DNA of 32,000 nt from Pseudodesulfovibrio piezophilus C1TLV30 (lineage in GTDB: Bacteria; Desulfobacterota; Desulfovibrionia; Desulfovibrionales; Desulfovibrionaceae): NCBI RefSeq assembly GCF_000341895.1, contig NC_020409.1, forward strand, positions 2,340,001-2,372,000. The letters run 5' to 3'. Shown one piece after another: positions 15,461-32,000 of this stretch. Position numbers and translations under genes: made by a program. How positions within the stretch are numbered: position 1 is the first letter of the stretch; the number at the start of each line of letters is the position of its first letter. The notes beneath the pieces are model-generated. The model made no database searches. It was not told the origin of the DNA and was given only the letters and a program-made list of their open reading frames with translations.

Positions 15461-15470
15461 GGAATAAAAA

Positions 15471-15498
15471 AGGGAACCATTTGGTTCCCTTTTCTTTC
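15471..15498. terminator. Bidirectional intrinsic terminator between convergent pfk and the 15518-15922 gene
   Basis: AGGGAACCA (15471-15479) / TGGTTCCCT (15482-15490) hairpin, flanked by AATAAAAA upstream and TTTCTTTC downstream. Confidence 0.7.
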
Positions 15499-15517
15499 AT
15501 GTCGATGAAAAAGTTTG

Positions 15518-15922
15518 TTATTCATTCGCAGCAAGTCGGCGACGTACCTGTTCGTTGACTTGCCGACTGACACTTTCTTTCTCGGATTCCAGCGCAATGG
15601 CTAACAACTCGAAGAGATCATCATAAGAGAATTCCAGAGAGAGGCTGCCATTGGAAGCGATGCAACTTTCTTCCTGCTCTTCAATCTTGTAGGCGCGGCG
15701 TTCACGAGCATGACCGATTGCGGAAATGATCCCATATGCAAGCTTGCCGTTCTCTTCACGGTAGAGCTTCTCCATGGTTAGCATTCCCGACTTGTCGTCA
15801 AAATACATTTCTTCCCCGATGAGTTGTCCACTCACCGTCATATCTTCCCCGAAATCATTGGGCAGATTGACATTGAGGACGGGGTCTGTACCGTTGCCTC
15901 CGCCTACCATCTTTTTCGACAT
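15518..15922 (-). CDS. Hypothetical acidic protein (134 aa)
   Basis: ORF sits 11 nt downstream of the HTH gene on the same strand, so an operon is likely. No recognisable motif, signal peptide or TM segment. Confidence 0.55.
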   Translation of the reverse strand: MSKKMVGGGNGTDPVLNVNLPNDFGEDMTVSGQLIGEEMYFDDKSGMLTMEKLYREENGKLAYGIISAIGHARERRAYKIEEQEESCIASNGSLSLEFSYDDLFELLAIALESEKESVSRQVNEQVRRRLAANE

Positions 15923-15933
15923 GTTTGCGCTCC

Positions 15934-16224
15934 TTATTCCAAAGGAAGTTTATATTGTTGTGGACCTGATTTTCCCGTGTCCCGAGAAACAGCATCCTGC
16001 CAACCTGAATTTATGAAGTCCAATAACGCTTGTTCTGGAACGCGCCATTGGCTGCCGATCTTTATGGCCCTAATACTCCCGCCAGTGATGAGCCTGTACG
16101 CAGTCCTTTGGTGGACCCGCAGCAGTTCAGCCACTTCGCGCACGGTTAATAACGTGGGGGGCGTAGAAATATCTTTTCTGTCCATAATTTCATAAGCAGT
16201 CTTACATTGATCAACCTTTGACAT
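15934..16224 (-). CDS. Excisionase-family (MerR-superfamily) helix-turn-helix DNA-binding protein
   Basis: LLTVREVAELLRVHQRTAYRLITGGSIRAIKIGSQWRVPEQALLDFI is a textbook excisionase-type HTH_17 motif. The start may be Met14. Confidence 0.75.
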   Translation of the reverse strand: MSKVDQCKTAYEIMDRKDISTPPTLLTVREVAELLRVHQRTAYRLITGGSIRAIKIGSQWRVPEQALLDFINSGWQDAVSRDTGKSGPQQYKLPLE

Positions 16225-16628
16225 AAGCAGTCACTGATTGTCAACAAAGTACAACGTTGTCCTACAGAGTCTAGACATTTTCTATATGTGACATCTTACA
16301 AAACCATTACAAGAGGTTGTTGTTCGTTAGAGAATTGTATATCAGATTTTGCTCTGAAAAATAACGGTGAAAAGAGGCATTTTTTTATTTTTAAGAGTGA
16401 GAAAATCACTCAATGAGTCTAGGAAAAGTCAAAGGAATGTCTCAATGAAATGGGCAAAAAATAGTGGAAATAGGGGATCTGAGGCTTCTTAGTGCAGTGT
16501 GAAGGGAGGAAATCAAAAAAGGATGACAAAGGGAAAGAAGGAAGTATGAAAGAGTGAAAAAAATAAGTTCTGATATACAAGCTCTTAAGCGAGATACAAA
16601 CCTTGAAGTTTCTTGAAGGACGTTAAAG

Positions 16629-17093
16629 TCAGGGATTTGTCAAGACCATGAAAGAGAAGAGAGGGTGTGGAAAGGGATGAGGGGGAACAGGGTCTTCTTC
16701 AATTACATCGCAGAGAATCATAACGAGTTCGGTCTGGTCGTGCTCCAAATGGGTGATTATTTGCTGCATGATTCTTTCGAAATAGCTTCGGTCATTGATC
16801 GAAAGCCCCTTATTGGCGGTTTTCATTAAATCAGAGAGGGCGTTTTCAACCTTGATTTGCAGGGTTTGTCCGGTTGATGTCAGCCTGATAAGGTGTTGCC
16901 GTTTATCATCGGGCTTCAAAGTCCGAAAGATCAAGCCACCTCTTTCCATTCTTTTCAGGGTATTGGAAAGGGTTGCCTGTTCCACCAAAATCTGCTCAGG
17001 CAATTCTTTTTGAGTGATGTTGTCGGTCAGCCAGAGTTGCCTCAGTATCGAGAGATAGCCTGGGTGGACATTGTACACCAGACGCATGGCCAA
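16629..17093 (-). CDS. MarR-family transcriptional regulator
   Basis: Winged-HTH core ITQKELPEQILVEQATLSNTLKRMERGGLIFR...DDKRQHLIRLTSTG. Divergent from the deacetylase gene. Confidence 0.85.
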   Translation of the reverse strand: MAMRLVYNVHPGYLSILRQLWLTDNITQKELPEQILVEQATLSNTLKRMERGGLIFRTLKPDDKRQHLIRLTSTGQTLQIKVENALSDLMKTANKGLSINDRSYFERIMQQIITHLEHDQTELVMILCDVIEEDPVPPHPFPHPLFSFMVLTNP

Positions 17094-17282
17094 ACTTTTT
17101 GTAAAAAGGCGCTGTAATTGCGAAAGTCGCAGAAAGAAAGGGTCGGTATTATCTGTATGAATACTATATTGAATGATGAAAGCGAATAGTGTTCATTCAT
17201 GGAACGCTATGGAATGGGCGTGAGCCTGTCAGTATCAGAGCTGTGCCTTTACGTTGGTATTGGGACGCGATACCATGTTTCC

Positions 17283-18143
17283 ATGAAAATTATAGTGAAT
17301 GGTGATGATGCCGGGCTTCATCCAGCGGTGAATCGGGCTTTGAAAGCGTTAGTGGAAAGAAAAATAATGACCTCGGCATCTCTCACCGGAAATGGTGAAG
17401 CTGTTGAGGAAGCAGCAGAAATAAGGGATATAAGCCTCGGGGTACATCTTGATATCATACGGGGACGACCTGTTCATGATTGGCAGAAGATTCGTTCCCT
17501 TGTTGATGAAAACGGTGCTTTTCTGGGGAGTTCTACTGCTCTCTTTTCCCTGTATGCAGAAGGTCGACTTGAACATGAGCATGTGGAGCGGGAATGGAGA
17601 TCGCAGATTGAAAGAATTCTCGCCCTTGGTGTGCAACCATCACATCTAACCAGTCATGACCATGTGCATGCATGGCCGACATTGACCCGAATGATTGGTG
17701 AGCTTGCCTGTGAATACGGTATAAAATGGGTTAGAAAGCCTGTGGAGTGTGCCGAGATATCACTGTTGGGCAAGCGGCAGGGCCAAACAAAATTCATGAA
17801 TGTCTGCGGGATGTTTGACAGGGAGACAGATGGAGTGAACTGGACAGATGTCTTCTGGGAATTCCCGGAGGAGAGATTGAAAAACACACCGGCCGCTTTC
17901 GTTGCTTTTTTGAAAAAAGCTGGTGTTGGCAAAGGTGCGCCAGTGGTTGAAATAGGGTGTCGCCCTGGGAGTATCCAAGGGGGGGACCCCGTTATTCAGA
18001 AACAATATAAACCAATTCATATCGCTGCTGTCTGGCGGGAAACACTGGCCTCTTTCACTGAAAATAATTGGCTGGATACCTTTCAGTCACTTGGATTGAC
18101 CTTGACAGGTTACGATTGCCTGGAAATGGAAAAAACAGAATAA
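17283..18143 (+). CDS. ChbG/YdjC/HpnK-family carbohydrate deacetylase
   Basis: ORF 17199..18143. Family members begin MK.IVN.DD.G, and MKIIVNGDDAGLHPAVNRA starts at 17283. An HLD motif follows. No clear Shine-Dalgarno, so the start is uncertain (17199 and 17214 are alternatives). Confidence 0.7.
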   Translation: MKIIVNGDDAGLHPAVNRALKALVERKIMTSASLTGNGEAVEEAAEIRDISLGVHLDIIRGRPVHDWQKIRSLVDENGAFLGSSTALFSLYAEGRLEHEHVEREWRSQIERILALGVQPSHLTSHDHVHAWPTLTRMIGELACEYGIKWVRKPVECAEISLLGKRQGQTKFMNVCGMFDRETDGVNWTDVFWEFPEERLKNTPAAFVAFLKKAGVGKGAPVVEIGCRPGSIQGGDPVIQKQYKPIHIAAVWRETLASFTENNWLDTFQSLGLTLTGYDCLEMEKTE

Positions 18144-19102
18144 AACAAAGATTTTTCCAGTGAAGGGGGATGGGATCGCGTAATTGAATTGCTCTCGACT
18201 CAGCTTGCTTCAGGGAAGGGTGGTAATCTGATGGGGACTGACCACAATTGCAACTAATATTTCGTAATAATTGAATTAAAGCATGATAATACAGTGATGT
18301 TGATCAGGAAGATTGAGAGCTGTTTGGTATAAAATTGAAAGAGGACTGGGTGTCTTTATGTTCAATTGTGATCAAGACGTTGGGTTTGAGTAAGCAAGGG
18401 GAATAGTGGACTCTTTCCTGGATGGAATTGAGGTGTTTTTTGATTCGCTTGGTCAATAAAAAGATGCTTCGAATGTCGGTTCAGCCAAATATTCTGCTTC
18501 CCAAAATCGATTCCACCTGTGCCGAGAAGGTTCTTTGATGTAAAAGGGGACAGGCGACTGGATCAGTGGTTTTACCCATGAGTTCTTTTTCAAGGGGCCG
18601 AGTGCTCAGGGTGACTATTTTGACTTGTGACAGTGAGACACTCAAAAGCAGGCGATGAAGTTGGGTATTGCTTCTTCCAAGGTATGCTATTCTTCCGTAA
18701 GTTTTTTTAGGAACCATATCAGGGAAATTTTTTTGTAAGATTTCGCTGAAAATGTTGTGGATAGTTGCCTATTGCTGCTTTGCCTTTTTTTGTACTGTGG
18801 CAGGGAGAGCTCAATAAAGGTGCGTCCAGATACTTTTTTAAGATCATTTCATGAATTAGAGTATTTGAATTTGTTGAGTATTTTGAGATAGTGGCAGCCT
18901 GAAAAAGCGGAGTTGTTGGGATCAGTGTTTCTGAGAAAACCTGTTTTGCTGATATTGGGTGAGTGTTATGGATAAGAATACCATTTCCTTCTTTACTCCA
19001 GAAAGAGGTTTTCTTTTTCTGCTGATTTTTCGAGTGCAAACACGAGGCAGGTTTGAGGGTTGCTGACAGTTGCAGATAATAGAGACAGGCAGAGGTATGA
19101 AT

Positions 19103-19774
19103 ATGAGTGATACTGTCCGAGTGATCATAGCCAGGTACCAAGAGGATATCAGTTGGGCTGATGAACTTGGATATGCTTACACTGTGTATGACAAAAGCGA
19201 CACACCTATACAGGAATCCGTTTCTCTTGAAAACATTGGGCGTGAAAGCCATACCTATCTGGCGCATATTGTCAGGGAATATGACCGGCTAGCTCCGTTG
19301 AATGTCTTTGTGCAAGGGTGGCCGTTTGATCACATTGATGATCAGAAAAAAGGGTCGGTTGGTATGTTGCGGTCCATGATAGAAAGGTCTGTGGATCGCC
19401 ATATTCCGTTCAAAGGGTTTGCCTGGTTCAAGCTGAAGTGTGATCGCCTTGGGCGTCCCCATAATTTGGGGAATCCAGAGAATGAAGGGCGATGGGCCGG
19501 ATGGGGCAATGATATTCCACTCGGTGATATTTTCGAAAAATTGTTCGATGCCAAGTTTCCACGAAATCTGGTCGTTCGTGCTCCCGCCGGGCTGTTTGCC
19601 GTTACTGACGAGCGTATCAGGACGCGGCCTAAAGCCTTTTACGAATATGCATTGAGTCTGATTGAGGCTGATCCGACCGATAGAAAAAACACAGGGCATG
19701 CTTTTGAACGATTGTGGCAGCATATTTTCAATGGCAATACTGCCTGGAACAGGTCGAATTACGAGCACAGCTAA
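19103..19774 (+). CDS. DUF3431-like protein (function unknown)
   Basis: ORF 19070..19774 (TTG). I prefer the ATG at 19103, which is 7 nt after AGAGG. The motif pattern ARYQEDISW ... NIGRESHTYLAHIVREYD ... GLFAVTDERIRTRP ... GHAFERLWQHIFNG matches my memory of the DUF3431 family. Confidence 0.6.
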   Translation: MSDTVRVIIARYQEDISWADELGYAYTVYDKSDTPIQESVSLENIGRESHTYLAHIVREYDRLAPLNVFVQGWPFDHIDDQKKGSVGMLRSMIERSVDRHIPFKGFAWFKLKCDRLGRPHNLGNPENEGRWAGWGNDIPLGDIFEKLFDAKFPRNLVVRAPAGLFAVTDERIRTRPKAFYEYALSLIEADPTDRKNTGHAFERLWQHIFNGNTAWNRSNYEHS

Positions 19775-19830
19775 TACTCGGCCGCTATGAGAATAGACCC
19801 AATGGCATCTGCTTTCCGGAGGATATCCGC

Positions 19831-21054
19831 ATGTCACTTCCCCTGAATCTTCGTATTGCCGTCTCATCCCTGAAAGCCCATAAGTGGCGTGCTATTTTGG
19901 CGATGATGGGGGTGTTTCTCGGTGCCCTGGCTTTCACGGGGGTGCAACACGTCTCATCGATAATGGTTCGACAGGCCGAACTGGAGACCGAAAAACTCGG
20001 CCCGAATCTTTATGTGGTCATGGCCGGGACAATCCGCTTTCGCAGAAGCGGAAGTATCAGGGTGTCCGGTCATACCAGGACATTCACCATGGCCGATGCC
20101 AATGCGATCATCGGCGGAGTCCCTTCCGTGATGGAGGGTGCCCCCTATGTCTCCACCAATATGGAAATGCGTGGTGGCGGAAATGGGGTGACAGCCAAAA
20201 TTATGGCCACCATGCCCAATTATCAGAATATCAGGAGTTTTTACCCGGCATACGGACGATTTTTCAATACGGCTGACGTCGAGAATCGGGCCAAGGTCTG
20301 TGTGCTCGGGCAAAAAATAGCGGAAAGATTGTTTGGCGATGCCCAGAGCGCCATTGGGCAGACTGTGTACCTTTACAGAGCCAGTTTCCGTGTTTTGGGA
20401 GTCATGGAGACGAAAGGGAGGGATATTTCCGGTGAAGACCAGGATGAATATGCCTTTTTGCCGGTCACGACATTTATGCGTCGAGCAAGCAATCAGAATT
20501 GGATCAGCGGTGTTTTTCTCCGTCTTTCGAAAGATGCCGGGCTTGATCAGGTGGCGGCTTCAGCCCGTGCCATCATGCGTGACAGGCATCGTATCTCACA
20601 GGGGGAGGAAGACGATTTCAGCTCCATGTCTCCCCAGGATGCCATCAAACTGCAACGACAGGCCCTTGATCTTATGGTCACACTCGGCGGCATCACGTCG
20701 ACCATTTCCTTTGCCGTCGGTGGCATGGGCATTCTCTCCATCATGATTCTCGTGGTTCGCTCGCGCAGGGTAGAGATCGGTGTGCGCAGAGCTGTGGGGG
20801 GACGTCGTCGTGATATCATCGGACAGTTTCTTTTCGAATCGGGCCTGATGGCCTCTGTCGGAGGGGCTTTCGGTGTCATTATCACCATCATCCTCGTCAT
20901 CGTGGGGTGTTCTCTTGCCGACCTGCCAGTCATTATTGAACCTGGGAGTCTGTTAGTAACCCTCCTTGGTTCCTGTCTCCTCGGCATCGCCGCCGGGGCA
21001 TACCCCGCATGGCAAGCGGCCAATATTGAGATTCTTGATGTTTTGAAACATTAA
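19831..21054 (+). CDS. MacB/FtsX-family ABC transporter permease (no adjacent ATPase)
   Basis: ORF 19714..21054, trimmed to the ATG at 19831, 7 nt after GGAGGA. Layout is an N-terminal TM helix, a large extracytoplasmic domain, and C-terminal TM helices with the FtsX loop motif RRVEIGVRRAVGGRRRDI. Confidence 0.8.
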   Translation: MSLPLNLRIAVSSLKAHKWRAILAMMGVFLGALAFTGVQHVSSIMVRQAELETEKLGPNLYVVMAGTIRFRRSGSIRVSGHTRTFTMADANAIIGGVPSVMEGAPYVSTNMEMRGGGNGVTAKIMATMPNYQNIRSFYPAYGRFFNTADVENRAKVCVLGQKIAERLFGDAQSAIGQTVYLYRASFRVLGVMETKGRDISGEDQDEYAFLPVTTFMRRASNQNWISGVFLRLSKDAGLDQVAASARAIMRDRHRISQGEEDDFSSMSPQDAIKLQRQALDLMVTLGGITSTISFAVGGMGILSIMILVVRSRRVEIGVRRAVGGRRRDIIGQFLFESGLMASVGGAFGVIITIILVIVGCSLADLPVIIEPGSLLVTLLGSCLLGIAAGAYPAWQAANIEILDVLKH

Positions 21055-21301
21055 AAGAGGTATCCTGAGTCTTCTTTGAAGATATATAGCTGGCTATCAG
21101 CTAAGTATATAGTCGGCTGTTTTGTTCTGTATTCTTTTGTATTTCAGGGTATTAAAATAATAGACCCAGAAATGAATATTCGCGTATGGCAAGAAGTAGG
21201 AAGGGAGTTATCAAGGATGAAGTTCTGCCAAGTTCTCTATTGTGCAGTTGAATGACATGAGGGTACACTTAAGGTGAGGGTTAGAAAATAGAGGGAGACG
21301 G

Positions 21302-21898
21302 ATGACAAAGGATATGACGCCCAAAGCCATTCGGGAGGCAGTGATCAAGGCAGCCACCCAATGTTTTGCCGAAAAAGGCATCAAGCGAACCACCTATGCC
21401 CGGCTTGGTGAAGTTTCCGGTGTGGATCCGGTTGCCATCAAGGTTTTGTTTGGCAGCAAGGACCTTCTTGCCATGACCGTCCAGTCTCACGAACTTGAAA
21501 AATTGAAAAGTGATTATCTGACACACGTTCCAGATGCGCAGGCAGATGAAACCATCAAATTCATCATTTGCCATCGGCTTGAATTTTTGGCGCAAAACAG
21601 AGATCGGTCTGTCCTACTCATTAAAAATGCTCTCGCGGCCCGTCAGCCATGGGCGTCCATGCTTGACCATATTCTTTGGGAACTTTCCATCGAATTTGCG
21701 TCGATACTCGAAAAAGGCGTGCGTGAAGGCTCCCTCAGACGCGATTCAAATGTGACAACCGCTGTCCGGGCCATTACCAGTTTTTACATGACCGGCCTGG
21801 TCGTCATCGGCTTCAAGGCTGCCCAATTCGATCCGCAGGTCGTCTGGGAGTTTATCGAACCCCAGCTCAAGCTTGTGCTCGACAGTCTCAGGGCATAG
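21302..21898 (+). CDS. TetR/AcrR-family transcriptional regulator
   Basis: GAGGGAG Shine-Dalgarno. N-terminal HTH AATQCFAEKGIKRTTYARLGEVSGV. About 200 aa and all-helical in composition. TAG stop at 21896-21898. Confidence 0.85.
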   Translation: MTKDMTPKAIREAVIKAATQCFAEKGIKRTTYARLGEVSGVDPVAIKVLFGSKDLLAMTVQSHELEKLKSDYLTHVPDAQADETIKFIICHRLEFLAQNRDRSVLLIKNALAARQPWASMLDHILWELSIEFASILEKGVREGSLRRDSNVTTAVRAITSFYMTGLVVIGFKAAQFDPQVVWEFIEPQLKLVLDSLRA

Positions 21899-21903
21899 CT
21901 TTC

Positions 21904-22076
21904 ACATCACGGACATCACGGACATCACGGACATCACGGACATCACGGACATCACGGACATCACGGACATCACGGACATCACGGACATCACGGACATCAC
22001 GGACATCACGGACATCACGGACATCACGGACATCACGGACATCACGGACATCACGGACATCACGGACATCACGGAC
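21904..22076. repeat. Perfect tandem repeat, 19 x 9 bp (ACATCACGG) plus a 2-nt partial copy
   Basis: Counted directly: units run in phase from 21904 to 22074 with no mismatch. The array begins 5 nt after the tetR stop codon. Confidence 0.98.
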
Positions 22077-22380
22077 TATTCTGGCTATCTCTCATCATGA
22101 GAGGTGCCCTTTCCTGTGCTTGAGTAACTCATGCCTGGCAAAGGTGGCTTCTTCTCTTTGCAGTCCGAATGATGCAGTGCGAGAAACGAAAAAAATTGCG
22201 GAGCAAGGAGCGGAAAGACTCGGTCGGATCGAAGAGTCCCCACGAGAAAGTGTGCATAAAGGAAGGTTCTCTTCGCTTTTATTGATTGTTTTGCATTCTA
22301 GAGTAAGTTGAGAAAAATACTAAAAAATGCGTTTCCGGCTCATTTTAAAAGAGAATTATGCCGAGTTGGACTTGGGAAGA

Positions 22381-22406
22381 TAAAAAAAGCAGGAGAAAGA
22401 CCTGCT
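22381..22406 (-). terminator. Candidate intrinsic terminator of the DUF2087 gene
   Basis: AGCAGG (22388-22393) / CCTGCT (22401-22406) with an A-run at 22382-22388, which gives a U-tract on the minus-strand transcript. A stronger 9-bp GC stem (GGGGAGCCG 22457-22465 / CGGCTCCCC 22474-22482) lies just after the stop, but its U-tract is displaced. Confidence 0.4.
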
Positions 22407-22493
22407 TTTCTTGTAGCTCGTTTTAAGACCGTGGTGGTTTTTGGGGAAAAGGGTGGGGGGAGCCGATGGTCTGCGGCTCCCCGTGAAATGTTC

Positions 22494-23069
22494 TCAGGAG
22501 AGTTGGGAAGGCGTTCCAGGACCCCCACGACGCAGATGCTCGAATACAGCGACGGCTTCTTGGGGGGGGCGCTGCTCCCGGCGTCTGTATTGCCGCCCAT
22601 TTTCTGTCCTTTCAGCCATGTTTCTGTCCACAAGCTCCCGTCGAAGGAGTGCGTGGTCTCCGAACAGATGCCACTGATTCAGGAGAGTGTTGATTTCCGG
22701 TTCTGTCAGGACGGTTTTTGCTGGGATTCTCGACCATATTACCCAGAGGCAGAGGCAGCGGATGCTGTCTTTCTTGGGCCAGCGGATCAATCGATTTTCG
22801 GTATCGAAAAGTCGGGTTGTCTGCGTAATCCTTTTCGGACGGGGCGTCGTGTGAGTCTGCATCGGTTGTGAAGCCTTCTTCGGGCCAGGAGAGTCTGTTG
22901 TCTGCTGTGCCTTCAAGTGCTGAAAGTTGCGATATCCGCCAGCGTTGGCTATCAGGTTGAGCATTGTAACATGGCTGACAGGGGTCTCCTGCGCAGCTAA
23001 ACGGGTCCGTAAGGTCTTTGCGAATGCTGAAAAGTCGCTCACGAAAAAGGGAAGGGGAATTCTGGACAT
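22494..23069 (-). CDS. DUF2087 domain-containing protein
   Basis: ORF 22494..23237, trimmed to Met57 (ATG 23069, MSRIPLPFFVSDFSAFAKTLR...). The N-terminal part (...GYRNFQHLKAQ) and the C-terminal RWPKK......WV..RIP....TEPEIN.LL...H.FGDHALLRRELVD resemble my memory of DUF2087 proteins. Confidence 0.65.
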   Translation of the reverse strand: MSRIPLPFFVSDFSAFAKTLRTRLAAQETPVSHVTMLNLIANAGGYRNFQHLKAQQTTDSPGPKKASQPMQTHTTPRPKRITQTTRLFDTENRLIRWPKKDSIRCLCLWVIWSRIPAKTVLTEPEINTLLNQWHLFGDHALLRRELVDRNMAERTENGRQYRRREQRPPQEAVAVFEHLRRGGPGTPSQLS

Positions 23070-23350
23070 GCTTATCCTCGCTTTCGCGCCTACCATGCAG
23101 TATGGATTGCCGGTGGTCGCCGACTTCCGACCCGGCACGTGGATAAGGTGTCGTATCGTAGAAATGAGTGCAGGTTTAGCTCCCCTTGCGGGGCGGCGAC
23201 GCCTTGGTGAACTGCCGACCAGCTGCAATCTATACAAAATTGTTTTCTTCTCTGCAACACTCGGGAAAGTGCCATTTTTATCCGCGCTTGCGGGCTTTGA
23301 TTTGTCAGGCTAGTCTTCACTCTGAACCCTTCACCAAACAAGGAGCTGCC

Positions 23351-24145
23351 ATGCCCGTTGTTTCAACCGTAACACTGTTGGTCAAGAATCTCGAAAAATC
23401 AGTCAGGTTTTACGAAAAGAGCCTTGGCTATGTGTGGACTCGGGAGAACCTGCTTGTGGGCTTCTATGGGCAATCTCTGCGCCTACAGCAGGTGTCTGAC
23501 GGGCCGACAGGAGGCTGTATGGTCCTGCATGTGGACGTGCCGGACCTCGATGCTGCAGAAACGGCGTTCTTACAAAACGGGGGAGGGCGTAGCAAGTATT
23601 CTGGCGGGAAAACACCACTCTACGTCGGACTTGACGGTGAATTGATCATGCTCCGGCAGCGAGGGTTGCCCAAGGTTCCCGCTCTGAAATTGATCGTGTA
23701 TGACTTCGACGGTGTTTTGACTGATAACCGTGTTTTCGTGGATCAGGCAGGGGGAGAGAGTGTTGCTGCCAACAGGTCGGACGGATTGGGTATTTCCATG
23801 ATCCGAAAACTTGGCATCGAACAGACTCTTCTTTCGACCGAAACAAATCCCGTGGTGTCTGCCCGTGCCGCAAAACTTGATATTTCAGTCATGCAGGCCG
23901 TTACTGACAAGGCGGCAATGCTCACGAAAATGGTTGTTGCCAGAGAAATTGCCTTTGCATCCGTACTATTCATGGGCAATGATATCAACGATCTCGGAGC
24001 CATGACCTTGTGCGGCTTCAAGGTTGCTCCGGCAGACGCGCACCCTTCCGTATGTGCGCTTGCAGATTATGTGACAGAAGCCAGAGGCGGGCACGGGGCG
24101 GTCCGGGAATTGGCCGATGTCATCATGGCTGGTCGCCGTTTTTGA
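23351..24145 (+). CDS. Fusion protein: N-terminal VOC/glyoxalase-like domain + C-terminal KdsC-family HAD phosphatase
   Basis: AAGGAG Shine-Dalgarno directly upstream of the ATG at 23351; the listed ORF start at 23186 is an upstream extension. Residues 1-105 (VTLLVKNLEKSVRFYEKSLGY...) look VOC-like. Residues ~112-264 carry KdsC/YrbI motifs: LIVYDFDGVLTDNRV, NRSDGLGI, GNDINDL, VAPADAHP, YVTEARGGHGAVRE. Confidence 0.75.
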   Translation: MPVVSTVTLLVKNLEKSVRFYEKSLGYVWTRENLLVGFYGQSLRLQQVSDGPTGGCMVLHVDVPDLDAAETAFLQNGGGRSKYSGGKTPLYVGLDGELIMLRQRGLPKVPALKLIVYDFDGVLTDNRVFVDQAGGESVAANRSDGLGISMIRKLGIEQTLLSTETNPVVSARAAKLDISVMQAVTDKAAMLTKMVVAREIAFASVLFMGNDINDLGAMTLCGFKVAPADAHPSVCALADYVTEARGGHGAVRELADVIMAGRRF

Positions 24146-24500
24146 GCAGATGTCGCTTTGCTTGCAAGACGACTCTCCTCACCTTCTTCACATTTTTTCA
24201 AGCACCTGAGACCGTTCATGGGAAGGATCAAATGTCTTCTCACTTTGAAAAGTGAGAGGCTTTGGTTCGATGTGGTGAATATATGAATCGTCACCATATA
24301 ATTATGATGTATTTTAGTAAGTTAAGAGAATCATAAAGTTATCGATCTCTTTTTTTTGATAGTGGCTTGTTGTGGGTGAATAATAAAATCCTTTACTGAG
24401 CATAGCGCTAGGGCGTGGCTGGCTTAAATGTCGACACGCCCTAACTTTTCAGTAATTAGGAAGCTGTCCCCATAATTTCTAGAGAATGGAGCAAGCTCTT

Positions 24501-24773
24501 CTATTTAGATATCGAAAGTTTTATGAGTCCTTCCGCTTCAGCTTCTTTTAAAATATCTAATATTTTCTTATAATATTTAGGTATGGATTCTTCAACAATT
24601 GATGCATTTGTCCAGGAAATATACGTAGGAACATCTATCCATCCTGTTAAACAATCCCACAAAGCATCTAAATTCTCACCATAATAGTCGGGTAGATCTA
24701 GTTTTTTTTTCAATTCCCAGTGGAGCGATTGGATAGATCGCATTTTCTTGCCATTTAATTCAACGCTACTCAT
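24501..24773 (-). CDS. cdiI: Barstar-family RNase inhibitor; CDI immunity protein
   Basis: The 90-aa ORF aligns without gaps to Bacillus barstar as I recall it (NG..RSI..LH..LKK.L.LPDYYGENLDALWDCLTGW ... EAEAEG). About 32 of the first 54 residues are identical, including the equivalents of Tyr29, Asp35 and Asp39. Its ATG overlaps the cdiA stop as ATGA. Confidence 0.9.
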   Translation of the reverse strand: MSSVELNGKKMRSIQSLHWELKKKLDLPDYYGENLDALWDCLTGWIDVPTYISWTNASIVEESIPKYYKKILDILKEAEAEGLIKLSISK

Positions 24774-27700
24774 TTTAATACCTGTTTGAAGGTTTTATAG
24801 TGATCTGTTGTTTTATATACAAGTCCGTCATTTGAGATGACTAGTCGTACTGTTCCTCTATAGCCTCCAGTGTCATTGATATCTGCTTCTATCCAAGTCC
24901 TTCCAGGAGCAGAGGGCAAGAGTCCTTCTTTGTCTTTGAAAACGTCTCCACCGATACTTTTGCCCGGAGCAACATCATGCAGGTTCCCTTTTTTGGGGTT
25001 CCATCCCAGTTTTTTTGCTTCAGCTTTTGTTAAGAAATTGTCAGGAAGCTTACCTTTTTTAACAGCGTATTGGGCAATGTCGTCAACTTTTGTGAGGACG
25101 GTAGCAACATTATCTCCCATCTTCGTACCAAGTCCAGCGATCATCAAGCCGATTTTGGACATGCCGAACTTGGTGAAGACTGCTCCGAGGGGGGCGGCGT
25201 CTACAGCCGTATCTATCAATATTTCGGTACTATAGTATTTTATGGCTTCTTCGTCTTGATCTTGGATTGCTTCTGCGAGCTTGTACGCATTGTACATTTT
25301 GACGCCAGCATCCACGGCTTCACAGGCTCCGTATATGACCAGAACAAGTGGGAGAGCGTTGTTTTCTGCGGCGTTACCGCCGGTCTGGGCTGCAATGTCA
25401 ACATCCCCACCGGCCAAAGCCGCAGCCATGCCTGCTCCAAGGCGGGCTACATTGACACCGTGTCGTTTCAGTTCAGCAATATCCGAGCTTAGCTTATTCA
25501 ACTCCGCCTGGAGTTCTTCTCCAGACAATTTGTCCATGTCTTTTGAGTCTTCAATTCTATTGCTGATCCAAGCACTGACAAATGTGTCGCCAATCAGTTC
25601 GCCAGTTACAGCGCCTATTGCACCGGATGCCCCGTTGCCTCCGGAAGCCAGATCGAGCGCACCACCAAGGGCGGCATGTGCAATGTATTGCGTGGCTTTG
25701 TTGATGTCCTGATCTTTGTAAGCTGTGCCAATCAGGCTTGCCCCTTGTGCCCCCAACGTCGAGACAGCCGCCCCGCGCATGTTTGCGACCAAGTTTTCAC
25801 CGAGGTTTCCGCCGTTGACGGCGGTGCCGACACCTGTGTTGATGCCTGCGTTGATGACATTGTCCTGAAGGCTGTTGGCGAGGTCGGAGTAGAAGAGGTC
25901 GAGTTCGGATGCGCCTTCGCCTGCGGTGGCGATGGAGTCGACGTTTTGGGCAACATCGCTGGCGATACCCGCGCTGATCATGGCCGTGGTCAGGGATTTG
26001 AGTCCTGCCTCGGAGGCGATGGAGGCCAAGCCCTTGCCAAGGTCACCGCCAGCGGCTGCGTTGCCGAGGGCAGTAACGGCTTGGGTGCCGATGGAGGTAA
26101 AGGCCGCTGTGAGAGCGGTACACATGGCAATCTGTGCTGTTGAGGCAGCAGTGGTCGTGCCCGCCACAACCATGGTGGATACGCCGTTCACCATAGCCAT
26201 CTCCATGCCCATGGCCGCCATAGCCAAGCCGGAAGCAGCACCTGCCGTTACAGCTGATGCAATGAGGGAGATGATCAACATACCTCCCGCGCCAAGGCCG
26301 CCGTCGGATTTGCTCCATTGGTCGTGAATTTCCTGGACGGCCTGCCAGTCAACGTCGTCGCGCTCCAGCAGGTCGCCCATCCATTCGAGGCCTTTGGCGT
26401 TGGCGAGGAGTTCGACGTCCTTGCGAACATCGCCGGAGGATTCCTTGAACTCCACGGTGACGCCCTTGGGCGTTGTGATAGTCAGGCTGGCCCCCGGCTC
26501 GATGAGAGTATGGAGTACGGTTTCGTCGATCTTGCCCTTATCCTCGGACGACCAGGTCAGGAAGCCCATATCGGTCTTCACTTTATGTTCAAAAGACTTG
26601 TTCTTGGTCACCAGCATCGCGACCTTGCCTTCTTCGGCTACGATCTCGGTGGTGTCTCCAGATTTGATGCTGGCGGATTGCAGCACGACGTCGTTCTTGG
26701 CGTTCAGAGCCACCTTTTGTCCGGCTTCAAAGACCGGACGATTGTTGGTGGTGTTTTCTTTCTGGACCATGTCCACGGATTCAGCACCCATGAATCCGCC
26801 ACGTTTTTCTTCGACTTTGATCTTATTTTGAATCTGGTTGGTTGTGGCCTGAATGTCCCTTGAGGCAGTGATCGTCACATTCTGGGTGGCCTTGATCTGG
26901 CTTCCCTTGACGATGGCGTTGCCTTCACTGGCGTCGCCCCCAGCCTCAATGCTGACCGAGCCCTTGGCGTTGATGGTCGAGGCTGCGTTGGTCTGGGCCA
27001 GTTGCTCGAATGTGGAGGACTTGCCGCCGCCGAAGAAGCTGCCACCGGCGTCGTCGGCGTGGCTGTAGAGATCTATTTCGTTGGTGGCGGCGGTGATGGC
27101 GACATTGCTGTCGGCCTCGAGGGTTGCATCACCCCCGATGTTTATCTGGCTGCCGTGGAGGGCGATGTCCTTGCCCGCTGTCACGTTCAGGTTGCCATCT
27201 GTCTTGACGGTGCTTGCTTGCTGCCGCGTGATGTTGGTGCGGGAGCTGTAGTTGCCGCCGGATACCGAGGATTGGGTGGCCAGATCGACTGTGGAGACGG
27301 CGACATTCCGGCCTGCGGCCAAAGTGGTGTCGCTGTCGCTTGTCACCTCGCTGCCGAGAACGCCGATGTCCTGGCCGGCTTCGATGGAAAGGGAGCCCGT
27401 GGCTTGAACCTTGCCCTGACTGCCAACGAACTGAGAAGAAGTCTCTTGATTGTTGTTATTCAACACCTGAGCGGCAAATACTACGTCCTTGTCTGCTTTC
27501 AACGCCACAGTTTCACCTGTGATGGTGCCACCTGTATTGCGAATGGAATCAGTTGTCGTCGCCGCGACAGTCTGACCAGAAACCGTGCCGGTGTTGAGGA
27601 AGTTTTCAGCAGTGATGGTCACCTGTGTTTGAGACTGGATCAGACCGTCATTAGACGTATTGCCCGCGGTGTTAATCGCCACGTCCTTACCCATGATGAC

Positions 27701-30295
27701 CGATCCGCCACGGGCAAGCTTTTTGATGCTGTTTGTACCGAGATACACGACAGGAACAAGGGCTTCCTGCCCATTTAATGTTCGCTTCTCCAGCCAGACA
27801 ATGTCTTTGGTCAGCGAAGAAATCTGCTCCTGAGTCAAGGCAATACCGGGAGTGAGGTTCAGGTCACCCTTAATATCAACGGCATTGTCCATGAGTTGTT
27901 TGAACTCTTCGGTATCAGTAGTGCGCTCCTCACTCAAAAAGCGCTTGGCAGCCAATTTCCTGATCTGTTTGGCCACAAGGCGCGTCTCGTAAAAGGCATC
28001 TCCCATGCGCTTATTGGCTTCGTCGTTCGGATCCATTCCGAAACGGGACATCATGTACTCCGAGCCGTAAAAATCATCGAGATCGATCAGGGCCGGGTCG
28101 GTCTCAATGGCGTAATTCTGGGCCGGATTGGTATTGAGATTGAACAGGCCATTGGACGGAAGAAGGTTGGTTTCATCCGTGACAGAGGAAACCTTGCGCT
28201 GCTGTTTGTTAGGGTCCGGCTCCTCGATAACGCCATTACGCTCGGTAATGCCGTTGGTTACTGTGCCGCCAGAGATGCTGACCTTGTTACCTGCGTCCAG
28301 AGTTCCATATTCATTGCCCACGGATGATAAATACTGAACAGTGCCGCCGCCCTTTTTTTCGATAGACGGTGAGCGGTGAGAATGGAAGGCACCGCGTCCC
28401 CAAGTGACATAACGGCGTTCGAACAGTTCATGCCCTATGTTGTTGAAAGATTTGGCGATAATGTTGATATCGCCTGTGGTCGATGAAATAGTGCTGACGC
28501 TGTTGGTACCTGCATCCGTCTCAATGAAAATGGAATTATGCGCTGCTATGGATGCCCCTGCATCTTCGCCCGTGACGGTATCAGTGGCTGTTCGTTCAGA
28601 GAATATTACGCCATTGGTCTGGCCGTAGGCCGCAACAAAATACAGCATTCCTTTCGCCAGCTCTCGCTTGGCGATTCTCAGCGCATTCTTCCCTTGTGAT
28701 GTCAAATAATTCGAATCCTCGGCGAGCTTCAGATCCAGCTCTGCAATATGGGCGGACAAATCTGCTGCTGAAATGACGTCAGGGGTTGTGTCCATTTTCA
28801 GGTGGTGCATGTTGCTCAAAGGGTAAGCCGTCCACCCGGAGGGGCCAGCGTAAGCCCGGCCAACATAGTGCTTGAAAAGCTCATACGTTTTCCAATTGTC
28901 GTCTCCAGCCTGGAATACGCCATCAAGAGTACCGCCTTCGTCGCCTCCTTCAACCAATATAAACTTTGAGTTGCTATTATTGAACGTAGTCGCACGGAAG
29001 ATCAGACCGCCCTCAAGGGATTCGATGGTTCCGGAATCATTCTGCAGGGTCGCCATGCGAGTGCCTGCAGTGGTCCCTTCAAGAACGGCGTTGCCTTTAG
29101 CGAGGATAGTACCTTCGTTGTTGTACAGGGTGTCATCAATGCGGAAGGTCGAAGTGCCGCCGGAGTATATGGTGCCGGTATTGGTGACATTGGTGGCCGT
29201 GATCAGCACCTCGGTATCCGCCGCCATAAGGCGCTGGTTGTCGAGGGTTCCGGTATTCACCTCGATCTTGTTTGCATTGACCAGAGCCGCATCAGTGGGA
29301 TTAACACGGGCCACGGTGACGGTTGGGGCAGACAGTGTGGCGGTTCCGGAGGCTTTGACCGTACCGGAGACATCAATGGAATCCTGCGAGGTCAGGGCCA
29401 ACGTATTGCCCGAGGAGACCTTGTTGGTAATCTGAATCTTGCCGTCAGCCGTCATCTCCAGATGCTGGGTGGACTGCACCAGCCCCTTCGTGTTGACGCC
29501 CACACCGGCCTCGGTTCCCACGAGCTTGATACGGCCCGCGTACATGCCACCAAGGGCGGAGGAATCGATGGAAATGGTGGGCGCAGGAGTGCTGTCCGCT
29601 GTCAGCGTGGTCGTGGTGCCAGAGACCGGATTGTGGCGGTTCTGGCCGGTGATCACACTCAGGCTCTTGGCGTGAATATCGGCGTTGATAGTGGCCACGC
29701 GGGAGACCAGTTCAAAGGCGTCGATGTTGTTGGCGTTGATGCCCGCGCCATGCACGAGGATGTCACCGCTGTGAACATCGAGGCCCACGAAGGTATTGCC
29801 ACTGAACTGCGGCACACCCGTGGTCATGGTGGCTTTGGGCGTGTTGATGAACCCACCACCATTGATGGAAATACCGTTGGGGTTGGACAGGATGTAATTG
29901 GCTGACTGACCGAATATTTCCGTATGCCCCTGAATGGACGAACGCCCGGTCCCGGTGACCTCATTGAGAATGGTGGTGGCTGCCGTGCCCGAGAAATTCG
30001 GGTTCGGAGCCATCGCACCGCCCAATTGAGACACGCCGGGGGCATCGCCGTTGTTGATGATGACACCCGAGCTACCGACATTGAAGTCGGTGAACATGTT
30101 GTGGGACATGCCGTTAGCGCCCGGAGCAGCTATGTTGACCACGTCCACGCCGTTGGGGGCAGTATCCATGGTCGCTTGATTGGCGGCAGGTGCAGCGGCG
30201 TCTGGGGTTATGCCCCCGGCGTGAACCATGGAGGGCGGGCAGAGAATGAGACTGATAAGGAAGGCGATGAAGAGCTGTTTGATGGATTCAAGCAT
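24770..30295 (-). CDS. cdiA: CdiA/TpsA-type filamentous-haemagglutinin-family exoprotein with C-terminal barnase-like RNase toxin
   Basis: 1841 aa. Features in order: a Sec signal peptide (…PPSMVHA/GG); a TPS domain with ILNEVTG and NPNGI; long G/T/N/V/S-rich beta-helix repeats; the FhaB-type conserved core (LPSNGLF, ETDP, DIVWLEKR...VPVVYL); a Gly/Ala-rich pretoxin region ending in AENN; and a barnase-like C-terminus. Confidence 0.92.
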   Translation of the reverse strand: MLESIKQLFIAFLISLILCPPSMVHAGGITPDAAAPAANQATMDTAPNGVDVVNIAAPGANGMSHNMFTDFNVGSSGVIINNGDAPGVSQLGGAMAPNPNFSGTAATTILNEVTGTGRSSIQGHTEIFGQSANYILSNPNGISINGGGFINTPKATMTTGVPQFSGNTFVGLDVHSGDILVHGAGINANNIDAFELVSRVATINADIHAKSLSVITGQNRHNPVSGTTTTLTADSTPAPTISIDSSALGGMYAGRIKLVGTEAGVGVNTKGLVQSTQHLEMTADGKIQITNKVSSGNTLALTSQDSIDVSGTVKASGTATLSAPTVTVARVNPTDAALVNANKIEVNTGTLDNQRLMAADTEVLITATNVTNTGTIYSGGTSTFRIDDTLYNNEGTILAKGNAVLEGTTAGTRMATLQNDSGTIESLEGGLIFRATTFNNSNSKFILVEGGDEGGTLDGVFQAGDDNWKTYELFKHYVGRAYAGPSGWTAYPLSNMHHLKMDTTPDVISAADLSAHIAELDLKLAEDSNYLTSQGKNALRIAKRELAKGMLYFVAAYGQTNGVIFSERTATDTVTGEDAGASIAAHNSIFIETDAGTNSVSTISSTTGDINIIAKSFNNIGHELFERRYVTWGRGAFHSHRSPSIEKKGGGTVQYLSSVGNEYGTLDAGNKVSISGGTVTNGITERNGVIEEPDPNKQQRKVSSVTDETNLLPSNGLFNLNTNPAQNYAIETDPALIDLDDFYGSEYMMSRFGMDPNDEANKRMGDAFYETRLVAKQIRKLAAKRFLSEERTTDTEEFKQLMDNAVDIKGDLNLTPGIALTQEQISSLTKDIVWLEKRTLNGQEALVPVVYLGTNSIKKLARGGSVIMGKDVAINTAGNTSNDGLIQSQTQVTITAENFLNTGTVSGQTVAATTTDSIRNTGGTITGETVALKADKDVVFAAQVLNNNNQETSSQFVGSQGKVQATGSLSIEAGQDIGVLGSEVTSDSDTTLAAGRNVAVSTVDLATQSSVSGGNYSSRTNITRQQASTVKTDGNLNVTAGKDIALHGSQINIGGDATLEADSNVAITAATNEIDLYSHADDAGGSFFGGGKSSTFEQLAQTNAASTINAKGSVSIEAGGDASEGNAIVKGSQIKATQNVTITASRDIQATTNQIQNKIKVEEKRGGFMGAESVDMVQKENTTNNRPVFEAGQKVALNAKNDVVLQSASIKSGDTTEIVAEEGKVAMLVTKNKSFEHKVKTDMGFLTWSSEDKGKIDETVLHTLIEPGASLTITTPKGVTVEFKESSGDVRKDVELLANAKGLEWMGDLLERDDVDWQAVQEIHDQWSKSDGGLGAGGMLIISLIASAVTAGAASGLAMAAMGMEMAMVNGVSTMVVAGTTTAASTAQIAMCTALTAAFTSIGTQAVTALGNAAAGGDLGKGLASIASEAGLKSLTTAMISAGIASDVAQNVDSIATAGEGASELDLFYSDLANSLQDNVINAGINTGVGTAVNGGNLGENLVANMRGAAVSTLGAQGASLIGTAYKDQDINKATQYIAHAALGGALDLASGGNGASGAIGAVTGELIGDTFVSAWISNRIEDSKDMDKLSGEELQAELNKLSSDIAELKRHGVNVARLGAGMAAALAGGDVDIAAQTGGNAAENNALPLVLVIYGACEAVDAGVKMYNAYKLAEAIQDQDEEAIKYYSTEILIDTAVDAAPLGAVFTKFGMSKIGLMIAGLGTKMGDNVATVLTKVDDIAQYAVKKGKLPDNFLTKAEAKKLGWNPKKGNLHDVAPGKSIGGDVFKDKEGLLPSAPGRTWIEADINDTGGYRGTVRLVISNDGLVYKTTDHYKTFKQVLK
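24773..25102 (-). other. Barnase-type (microbial guanyl-specific RNase family) toxin domain of CdiA, residues ~1732-1841
   Basis: KLPDNFLTKAEAKKLGW..KKGNLHDVAPGKSIGGDVF...EG.LP...GRTWIEADIN.TGGYR...R.....D.LVYKTTDHYKTF. Ungapped hand alignment to remembered barnase gives about 57/93 identities. The equivalents of Lys27, Glu73, Arg83, Arg87 and His102 are all present. Confidence 0.88.
25358..25369 (-). other. AENN motif (VENN-variant pretoxin boundary)
   Basis: The reverse complement of 25358-25369 reads GCA GAA AAC AAC = A-E-N-N, in the context GGNAAENNALPLV. This is the position and context of the VENN motif that delimits CdiA-CT domains. Confidence 0.8.
25358..26302 (-). other. Gly/Ala-rich pretoxin region (DUF637 / PT-VENN-like), residues ~1332-1646
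   Basis: GGLGAGGMLIISLIASAVTAGAASGL..., GDLGKGLASIASEAGLKSLTTAMISAG, ALGGALDLASGGNGASGAIGAVTGELIG. The composition and motifs resemble regions preceding VENN in other CdiA/MafB-type proteins. Confidence 0.6.
29396..30217 (-). other. TPS (two-partner secretion / haemagglutination-activity) domain of CdiA, residues ~27-300
   Basis: NGVDVVNIAAPGANGMSHNMFTDFNV, ILNEVTG, and the NPNGI motif encoded at 29870-29884 (verified by reverse translation). Confidence 0.85.
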
Positions 30296-30310
30296 GATGA
30301 TTACTCGCAG

Positions 30311-32000
30311 CTAGAAGGAGTATTTGATGGAGGTGTAAATTTCGATGTCGTCTTTTTGCAAAAAGGCAGGCGCGTCGATGGGACGGGCTACGGCAAAGTC
30401 CATGACCAGTCGTCCACCGCTGGTGCGCATACCGACCACCGCGCCCTGGAGCGAACCGCGCTCCTCCAAATCCTTGGGATCGGATCGAATGACGCCCGTG
30501 TCGTATCCGGCATAAAACTGCATGGTGCCCAACCAGTCGGATGCAGTCGGCGATTTCTTTTTGATATTCGGCAGATTGAGCGTCAGTTCGTTGCGCATGT
30601 ATGCGCCGATATCACCGCTCAGGCTGTCGTCATGAAAGCCCCGGACGGTGTAACGGCTGCCGATGCTGATCTGTTCTGCGCTGTAAAGGGTATGAGGAGC
30701 CCACTGGCCAGTGACGGAGGTATTCCACGAAAGGTTGAGATCCTTGACTTTCAACGGGCGAAAGAAGCTGCCGTTGAACACAAACTTGTTGAACTCATTA
30801 CGCGCGGTATCGAGTGAGGGAGATATATCCCGTTTAGCTCCCAAAAGAGGCAGGCCGTGGCTGTATCCCACCTGTGCGCTTGCTACACCGCCGAGTACTC
30901 GGTGCGTATGTCCGAGGGTGGTCCCAATGGAGGTAAGAACCTGACTGGTAGCGACCAGTCGTCCGCTATTGAAGTAGTTCTGCGTATCCCGATGGGTGAG
31001 GGAGACATTCAGCGATGTTTTGCCGTTCTGATCACGGTGAAGCACACGATCAACGCTCAGGGATGTCGTCGTTGTGTCGCCTTCCGAGGGATAGTTAGCA
31101 CCGCCGCTGGTCACTTCCGTGCGGTATTTATAGTGGCTGAAAGATCCGGAGAAGGTCCAGTAGCCTAGTGGCACCGAGTAGAAGGCGTTGTAGGTGGCGC
31201 TCTTCTGATGCTCATCTGTCAGCCAAGAGTCTGAATCGCCGTTGATGGTGATGTTGAGCAGGTCATTAATGCCAAACAGATTGTCCTTAGCAAGGGCAAG
31301 GACATACTGATTGCGGCCGGTAGAATCCTGCCCCGTGTTATCCAGACCAAATGAGGCGCGCCAGGTCTTTTTACGCTCGTTGGAGACAACAACACGGCTG
31401 GCACCTTGCTCTCCACCAGGAAGCAACTCCATCGATGCATTGTTGGAAGGAAGGCGGTTGATCTGATCAAGCCCCTGTTCAATGTCTCTCAGGTTCAGAT
31501 ACTTTCCGGCCAGTCCTGGAAACGCGCCCTTGATCTCCCGCTGGCTGCCCTGCCCCTCTTTGAATTCGATCCCCTCGACCTTTCCCTCTACAACCATGAT
31601 TACCAGATGTCCGCTGGAGAGATCCTGCTCCGGAATGGCCGCACGGGTGGTGACATATTCCTTTTCCACATAGGCATTGGTGATGTCGTGGACGAGATTA
31701 TTGACGTCGTTAAGCGTCAGGCAACGGCCTATGTATTTGGCAGTAATAGCGTCGATCTCTTTTTGATCGAGAAGGGTTACGCCCGTAATTTCAATGGACT
31801 TGGTCTCCATACATGGAGCATCAGGAGCCGCCTCCGGGATCTCCGACAATCGTAAATCCTCGCCGGTGGGAGCTTTTTGCAGCTCTTCACGATGCTGCCG
31901 CTCCAATTCCAGCCTGCGCTGCTCCTCCTGCCGCTGAAGCTGTTGCTGTTGACGAATGGCGTCGTCGACAGGAGCAGCCCAAGCCATAGGGCAAACAATA
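30311..32000 (-). CDS. cdiB: CdiB/TpsB Omp85-family transporter (ShlB/FhaC/HecB type), 5' end outside the window
   Basis: Has a POTRA-like N-terminal region and a beta-barrel with a C-terminal aromatic terminus (...YTSIKYSF). The frame stays open to the window edge: codons upstream of the listed Met read ...IVCPMAWA/APVDD, the end of a signal peptide. Its stop is 15 nt upstream of the cdiA start. Confidence 0.88.
   Translation of the reverse strand, partial: IVCPMAWAAPVDDAIRQQQQLQRQEEQRRLELERQHREELQKAPTGEDLRLSEIPEAAPDAPCMETKSIEITGVTLLDQKEIDAITAKYIGRCLTLNDVNNLVHDITNAYVEKEYVTTRAAIPEQDLSSGHLVIMVVEGKVEGIEFKEGQGSQREIKGAFPGLAGKYLNLRDIEQGLDQINRLPSNNASMELLPGGEQGASRVVVSNERKKTWRASFGLDNTGQDSTGRNQYVLALAKDNLFGINDLLNITINGDSDSWLTDEHQKSATYNAFYSVPLGYWTFSGSFSHYKYRTEVTSGGANYPSEGDTTTTSLSVDRVLHRDQNGKTSLNVSLTHRDTQNYFNSGRLVATSQVLTSIGTTLGHTHRVLGGVASAQVGYSHGLPLLGAKRDISPSLDTARNEFNKFVFNGSFFRPLKVKDLNLSWNTSVTGQWAPHTLYSAEQISIGSRYTVRGFHDDSLSGDIGAYMRNELTLNLPNIKKKSPTASDWLGTMQFYAGYDTGVIRSDPKDLEERGSLQGAVVGMRTSGGRLVMDFAVARPIDAPAFLQKDDIEIYTSIKYSF

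Follow-up and report, generated by a model that had tools for sequence, protein, structure and literature searches.

Contact-dependent growth inhibition (CDI) of the E. coli type, as in strains EC93, EC536 and EC869, is encoded by three genes in the order cdiB-cdiA-cdiI. CdiB is a TpsB transporter with POTRA_2, POTRA_3 and ShlB domains, while CdiA comprises a two-partner secretion (TPS) domain, beta-helical repeats, a DUF637 domain and a PT-VENN pretoxin motif, followed by a bipartite C-terminal region (CT) that is polymorphic past a (V/A)ENN motif and is matched by an immunity gene directly downstream. Here we describe a locus with the same features on the chromosome of Pseudodesulfovibrio piezophilus C1TLV30. 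It lies on the minus strand at 24501-32000 of a 32,000-nt stretch that was analyzed as a whole (the window, to which all positions refer), and its CdiA ends in a barnase-type ribonuclease (RNase) followed by a barstar-type immunity gene.

The toxin and its inhibitor have their own described counterparts in barnase and barstar of Bacillus amyloliquefaciens (PDB 1BRS, 1A2P, 1A19), with which the window pair shares the toxin-then-inhibitor gene order. In B. amyloliquefaciens barnase is a Sec-secreted free enzyme that acts in the medium, whereas in the window it forms the C-terminal cargo of an 1841-aa type Vb secreted filament and would presumably act inside another bacterium, in the cytosol. The same toxin/immunity cassette also occurs as exchangeable cargo of Rhs and type VI secretion system (T6SS) toxins and of Gram-positive polymorphic toxins, which differ in delivery machinery. 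The catalogue of Zhang et al. 2012 gives Tox-Barnase/Imm-Barstar for the type II, VI and VII secretion systems (T2SS, T6SS, T7SS), TcdB/TcaC, MuF and PVC, with the type V secretion system (T5SS) not listed (PMC3482391), and Rhs-Ribonuclease/Barstar pairs have been catalogued from Salmonella SPI-6 (PMC10469887). The nearest described CdiA is that of Pseudomonas brassicacearum DF41, which appears in Table 1 of Mercy et al. 2016 from in silico analysis only (CdiA CD58_03750, CdiI CD58_03755; PMC4725963). It shares with the window protein a DUF637 pretoxin, a CT of the microbial ribonuclease superfamily ('Ribonuclease/ribotoxin (IPR016191)') and a barstar-domain CdiI. Unlike the window protein it is a class IV Pseudomonas CdiA from a gammaproteobacterial host, and its CT is assigned at the level of the superfamily. 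A 2022 review of CDI states that all BECR subfamilies are represented among the characterized CdiA-CT structures 'apart from barnase' (PMC9086364).

In the window the open reading frame (ORF) list places cdiB, cdiA and cdiI in series, with 15 nt between the first two genes (TAG ctgcgagtaatcatc ATG) and a 4-nt ATGA overlap between the last two. This is the layout, co-directional genes included, that a sequence-only reading of the stretch had proposed, and it was found exactly where that reading had put it. Searches with profile hidden Markov models (HMMs) from Pfam matched all families expected in CdiB, CdiA and the 90-aa protein, PT-VENN by way of a sub-fragment. CdiB matched POTRA_2 (1.5e-25), POTRA_3 (6.8e-23) and ShlB (6.5e-90), and the repeats of CdiA matched Fil_haemagg_2 (5e-9). 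The only addition from NCBIfam was the N-terminal TPS domain of CdiA (TIGR01901 adhes_NPXG, 6.8e-16). The NPNGI motif of this domain falls at 29870-29884 (CdiA residues 138-142), and the AENN motif, the boundary at which homology with relatives ends, at 25358-25369 (residues 1643-1646); both had been located to the base in the earlier reading. Taken together, the HMM families, the formal alignments described below, the retained catalytic pair and a complete mature CdiB support the CDI interpretation, and we put the probability that these genes form an E. coli-type CDI locus armed with barnase at about 0.85. The features are collected in Table 1.

Table 1. Features of the cdiB-cdiA-cdiI locus, in window positions, with the evidence for each.
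Feature	Coordinates	Strand	Evidence
cdiB, TpsB/Omp85 transporter	30311..32000, continuing past the edge	minus	Pfam and open frame
cdiA, 1841 aa, complete ATG-to-TGA ORF	24770..30295	minus	ORF list, Pfam, TIGR01901
CdiA Sec-type signal peptide, about residues 1-26 (MLESIKQLFIAFLISLILCPPSMVHA/GG)	30218..30295	minus	Read from the translation; cleavage site putative
TPS secretion domain, residues 29-289	29429..30211	minus	Pfam PF05860, 1.1e-43
Variable central region, about residues 421-720, candidate receptor-binding region	28136..29035	minus	Identity drop among related CdiAs
DUF637, residues 1394-1562	25610..26116	minus	Pfam PF04830, 5.1e-36
PT-VENN pretoxin motif region, residues 1616-1648	25352..25450	minus	PF04829, 23.6 bits against a cut-off of 20.3
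CT N-terminal segment, residues 1647-1729, candidate cytoplasm-entry domain	25109..25357	minus	Common to relatives with other toxins
Barnase-type RNase toxin domain, residues 1730-1841	24773..25108	minus	PF00545, phmmer, AlphaFold2/Foldseek
cdiI, 90-aa barstar-type immunity gene	24501..24773	minus	PF01337, phmmer, ATGA overlap with the cdiA stop

The barnase assignment is supported by profile, alignment and model alike. The PF00545 Ribonuclease profile matches residues 1744-1839 (2.4e-15; 57.3 bits against a cut-off of 24). A Smith-Waterman alignment of the last 109 CdiA residues to barnase runs without gaps at 62/109 identities (57%), a better match than the 57/93 or so that the sequence-only reading had given, and phmmer against the PDB returns barnase and binase over residues 2-109 with E values of about 1e-38 to 1e-39 (1a2p, 1.3e-38). 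Barnase K27, D54, E73, R83, R87, H102 and Y103 are identical in the CdiA CT, with R59 to lysine as the sole change, and the Glu/His catalytic pair is thereby kept on formal alignment. In CdiA numbering the equivalents of E73, R83, R87 and H102 are E1803, R1813, R1817 and H1832. In an AlphaFold2 model of the 199-residue CT that follows AENN, the barnase part has a pLDDT of 85-97, and Foldseek aligns it with barnase and binase at target-normalized template-modelling (TM) scores of 0.90-0.95 and a root-mean-square deviation (rmsd) of 0.8-1.0 A (1bsd_A: TM 0.94, rmsd 0.9 A). As modelled, the whole mature barnase fold is present in the CdiA CT. Because alignments, residues and fold model agree, we regard the barnase likeness as confirmed, far beyond chance.

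The 90-aa protein encoded by the overlapping gene matches PF01337 Barstar at 5.7e-25 (87.6 bits against a cut-off of 23.4) and aligns with barstar, again without gaps, at 38/82 identities (46%; phmmer E 8.8e-23, residues 3-83 of 90). Barstar Y29, D35, W38, D39, T42, W44, E76 and E80 are all identical in it, the first six being barnase-binding residues of helix 2 and the loop after it, which bears out the claimed retention of the barnase-contacting Tyr/Asp/Asp residues.

What a barnase is doing at the end of a CdiA protein could be explained in another way. The classical role of Bacillus barnase is that of an extracellular nutrient-scavenging RNase, and the window protein might be a two-partner-secreted exoprotein that releases such an enzyme, with barstar protecting the producer during synthesis only and with no cell-to-cell delivery. 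Barnase homologues are indeed mostly secreted stand-alone or wall-anchored proteins (SLH, LysM and peptidoglycan (PG)-binding fusions and two-domain proteins of Clostridia), and barnase/barstar pairs are known that have no delivery module (PMC3482391). The closest stand-alone barnases to the window domain, at 66-72% identity, come from metagenomes, a Lewinellaceae metagenome-assembled genome (MAG) and Paenibacillus. Many further matches (P0002-P0058) are metagenomic proteins of about 275-300 aa, one of them named as from Clostridia. They score about 200-246 bits with only some 50% of the query covered, a pattern suggestive of two barnase domains in tandem.

Evidence on this question comes from the relatives of the window CdiA, of which a scan of GTDB genomes with CdiA peptides found three. 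The CdiA of Pseudodesulfovibrio pelocollis (L002) shows 49% identity up to residue 1633, where the BLASTP match that begins at residue 1 ends, and carries the same GNAAENNA, after which come a Colicin/Pyocin DNase domain (9.5e-37) and an unrelated 82-aa ORF. By this comparison the CT is polymorphic exactly at AENN, and this is the strongest argument for CDI that the relatives offer. The segment that follows the motif is modular as well: residues 1647-1729 are common to P0123, P0124, P0126 and P0127 (about 75-90% similar by eye, alignment A1), all with non-barnase C-termini, while in P0122 and P0125 the motif is followed by a different segment and then by barnases with 85% and 68% identity to that of the window. 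Alignment A1 thus shows the putative entry segment and the toxin recombining independently. In a metagenome locus (L006), cdiB and a cdiA of 1964 aa precede an orphan DUF637-PT-VENN-barnase ORF with a barstar gene. Over 980 bp the orphan and the 3' part of the main cdiA are 98.8% identical, and this stretch would provide a ready recombination arm. Orphan cdiA-CT/cdiI modules and Neisseria tpsA cassettes are known arrangements, and the L006 barnase/barstar module resembles them in being a 5'-truncated cassette after a full cdiA; unlike these, the window cassette is in the expressed position. The position of the toxin behind DUF637 and PT-VENN, its exchange at AENN for a colicin-type DNase, the segment common to unrelated toxins and the orphan arrangement in L006 are hallmarks of delivered polymorphic toxins and argue against a scavenging enzyme, which we therefore consider highly improbable.

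Base composition falls in steps along the locus, from 56% GC in the body of cdiA to 51% in the pretoxin region, 49% in the entry segment, 41.5% in the barnase domain and 33% in cdiI. This gradient fits lateral acquisition of the toxin/immunity cassette from a low-GC donor.

Three other loci were noted in the same searches. In L005 a CdiA with 62% identity is cut off by the end of the contig, and after it comes an 89-aa barstar ORF that is absent from the gene calls. L007:6695-12247 is a decayed relative with a 401-aa truncated CdiB, a 599-aa DUF637-ribonuclease ORF and a 146-aa barstar-domain ORF among transposases, its ribonuclease having changed several barnase catalytic equivalents (K27E, E73T, R83D). 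At L004:14677-17708 an 877-aa 5'-truncated haemagglutinin-repeat ORF ends in a TNT (tuberculosis necrotizing toxin) domain (5.8e-31) and is followed by an Imm63 protein. This orphan-type module sits 3' of a 2255-aa Pseudodesulfovibrio TpsA that matches the window CdiA over residues 1-1154 only and has no DUF637/VENN.

Three barnase/barstar pairs, and only these three, were compared at the toxin-immunity interface (window 24501-25108, L005:1-1586 and L006:10001-11588). The window pair has K59/E60 in the toxin and E76/E80 in the immunity protein, retaining the canonical K/R59-E76 charge pair. In the L005 pair the charges are reversed on both sides, with D59/K60 against R76/H80, which hints at diversification of specificity. 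In the orphan pair of L006 these positions are T59/K60 and E76/Q80, and its barstar also carries D35Y and W38R.

Upstream of cdiA, the cdiB frame stays open through the last full codon of the window, up to base 31999, and its start codon lies outside. The visible CdiB N-terminus (IVCPMAWA/APVDDAIRQQQ) aligns with the signal peptide/mature junction of relatives of 602-621 aa, and therefore only the signal peptide is missing from the window; by this alignment the mature CdiB is complete. The sequence-only reading had held that a cdiB truncated beyond the window would count against it. On this point the mature protein proved complete, while the window stops short of the start codon and of most of the signal peptide. 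An exact 40-mer scan of metagenome contigs for the 5' end of cdiB gave no match, and a CdiB-based scan of contigs matched a 62% identical relative (L008) and a fragment (L009).

An intact locus may still be silent or undeployed, a resident cassette kept only for immunity against neighbors with the same toxin. That the promoter region lies outside the window leaves room for such a reading, as does the decay of related loci, of which L007, with its truncated CdiB, lost catalytic equivalents and flanking transposases, is an example. Against it, each of the three ORFs is full length and free of frameshifts, the catalytic residues are intact, and the tight coupling of the genes by the 15-nt gap and the ATGA overlap is preserved. 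Furthermore, a JGI metagenome contig from an independent assembly (L001), which begins within cdiA and contains its 3' part, cdiI and the flank, is 99.6-99.7% identical to window 14389-25928. We accordingly judge a silent locus to be improbable.

The central part of CdiA is variable among relatives. In comparison with four related CdiAs, identity is 50-85% at residues 1-420 but drops to 15-45% at about 421-720, and for P. pelocollis it is 15-17% at residues 481-600. This collapse is the pattern expected of a receptor-binding region, and by analogy with E. coli CdiA we consider the region a candidate for that role. CdiA proteins are also adhesins, and a system of this kind might serve mainly in kin recognition or in contact-dependent signaling and biofilm cohesion and not in killing; Garcia et al. 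2016 are said to have described signaling and biofilm roles in some Burkholderia CDI systems. Exact look-ups found the barstar and the neighboring 198-aa protein on JGI metagenome contigs 3300009847-49, and near-identical populations with the locus recur in three related metagenomes, which would also suit kin recognition. Nothing in the sequence favors signaling, however, and barnase is a non-specific, highly active RNase, which makes a subtle signaling role less likely. We give this explanation scarcely any weight in comparison with growth inhibition by a delivered RNase.

The segment between AENN and the barnase domain, residues 1647-1729, is predicted to be helical with a hydrophobic start (ALPLVLVIYGACEAV), as judged by hydropathy. 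AlphaFold2 models it as all-helical with a pLDDT of 42-82. It matched no Pfam family, with PT-TG specifically sought and not found at E <= 1, and Foldseek returned no PDB match outside the barnase part.

Several observations weigh against the CDI reading or set the locus apart from E. coli-type systems. The PT-VENN profile passes its cut-off only on a 136-aa sub-fragment and is absent at E <= 0.01 from a scan of the whole protein. The boundary motif is AENN and not VENN, although AENN, AEHN and ARNN all occur among relatives. E. coli CdiA has about 3000 aa, compared with which the window CdiA is short at 1841 aa. The start and promoter of cdiB lie outside the window. The entry and receptor-binding roles were assigned purely from conservation patterns, the entry segment having a low-confidence model and no match in Pfam or the PDB. 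The host belongs to the Thermodesulfobacteriota (Desulfovibrionaceae) and is a strict anaerobe that reduces sulfate, not a beta- or gammaproteobacterium, and the toxin is a true barnase. Finally, barstar homologues are widespread, so that many potential targets are perhaps naturally immune, which would lower the competitive value of the weapon.

With these points in mind, we propose the following model for the locus. CdiB, an Omp85/TpsB beta-barrel with two POTRA domains by homology, would export CdiA by way of its TPS domain. CdiA would form a beta-helical stalk, with its variable central region as the probable site of binding to a receptor on a neighboring cell. The delivered cargo would be the bipartite region past AENN, as marked out by polymorphism among relatives. 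Its helical, partly hydrophobic segment of about 83 residues, which behaves as a module in these proteins, probably mediates entry through the inner membrane of the target, after which the barnase domain, given its fold and its Glu73/His102-equivalent acid-base pair, would degrade RNA in the target cytosol. The barstar homologue, translationally coupled through ATGA, would shield the producer and its kin, the helix bearing Asp40, its equivalent of barstar Asp39, plugging the RNase active site. The low-GC cassette may have been acquired laterally and may be exchanged by recombination in the conserved pretoxin/entry region. Toxicity, delivery and neutralization at this locus we infer from sequence.

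Orphan cdiA-CT/cdiI modules were also looked for 3' of cdiI, and none was found in the window because a convergent HAD-type gene comes next. A promoter and terminator scan of 24000-24900 gave nothing beyond chance. By eye we noted an inverted repeat, TAGGGCGTG...CACGCCCTA, at 24409-24443 on the minus strand, about 60 nt 3' of the cdiI stop, with a 9-bp stem and a loop of about 17 nt; it has no T-run and was not reported by the terminator scan. The rest of the window is ordinary chromosome, with genes for 2-oxoacid:ferredoxin oxidoreductase subunits, queA, coaBC, nfeD/SPFH, parA/parB and two sugar kinases. QueA is 100% identical to the P. piezophilus protein, and its next best hits, at 75-77%, come from other Pseudodesulfovibrio. 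A 9-bp tandem repeat, ACATCACGG, in 19.2 perfect copies at 21904-22076 directly follows the 198-aa ORF (21302-21898); its copy number differs in L001, whose alignment to the window is interrupted at 21959/22021. The minus strand at 23168-23221 matches the Rfam COG3860 RNA motif with 76 bits (gathering score 42.5), immediately upstream of a DUF2087/COG3860-type gene (22494-23237, minus strand).

The combination of a CdiA pretoxin with barnase appears to be rare. With residues 1394-1841 as the query, an exhaustive HMMER search covering 1.84 billion cluster representatives gave, among the best 150, only P0121, P0125 and P0150 with DUF637/pretoxin and barnase combined, and a word-indexed search added P0122. 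All four are metagenomic and belong to the same CdiA clade as the window protein, and the count is a lower bound. The DF41 CdiA was not among these best 150 representatives. The other long barnase-ending proteins among the matches listed carry Rhs, SLH, PT-TG, LysM, PG-binding or HhH domains, and the searches also found Rhs-barnase (P0304, P0133) and PT-TG-barnase (P0318, P0328) fusions. A literature search retrieved no paper linking CdiA with Desulfovibrio-type bacteria.

The sequence-only reading had held that barnase-type C-termini appear only in catalogues and that no barnase/barstar CDI pair is known to have been characterized. On the second point it agrees with the 2022 review; as a claim of novelty it was otherwise overstated, as both the cassettes and the DF41 locus were already catalogued. 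The stricter version, that barnase occurs only in catalogues and never on a T5SS, was rejected in view of the Pseudomonas locus listed by Mercy et al. 2016. The window locus is thus a rare, well-preserved example of an already catalogued kind, and conceptually it is not new. A bolder proposal would be that CdiA-borne barnase/barstar pairs diversify their interface and so give strain-specific immunity, and that this locus is the first functional CDI system in a sulfate-reducing anaerobe outside Pseudomonadota. We regard that as rather unlikely, but if true it would turn the best-studied protein-protein interface in biophysics into a natural model for the evolution of cognate specificity in interbacterial warfare.

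For barnase and barstar the energetics of folding, unfolding and binding are known exceptionally well, and a barnase-armed CdiA would therefore be convenient for questions of CDI toxin unfolding, translocation, refolding and tightness of immunity. The locus provides a full-length, apparently intact example of barnase proper, the BECR subfamily that has no characterized CdiA-CT structure (PMC9086364). It does not overturn current understanding; it is a well-supported annotation whose practical appeal lies in a barnase/barstar model for CDI and in the presence of CDI in a sulfate reducer. CDI has so far been experimentally characterized in Beta- and Gammaproteobacteria, and the locus described here would extend it to a deep-sea-type sulfate reducer.

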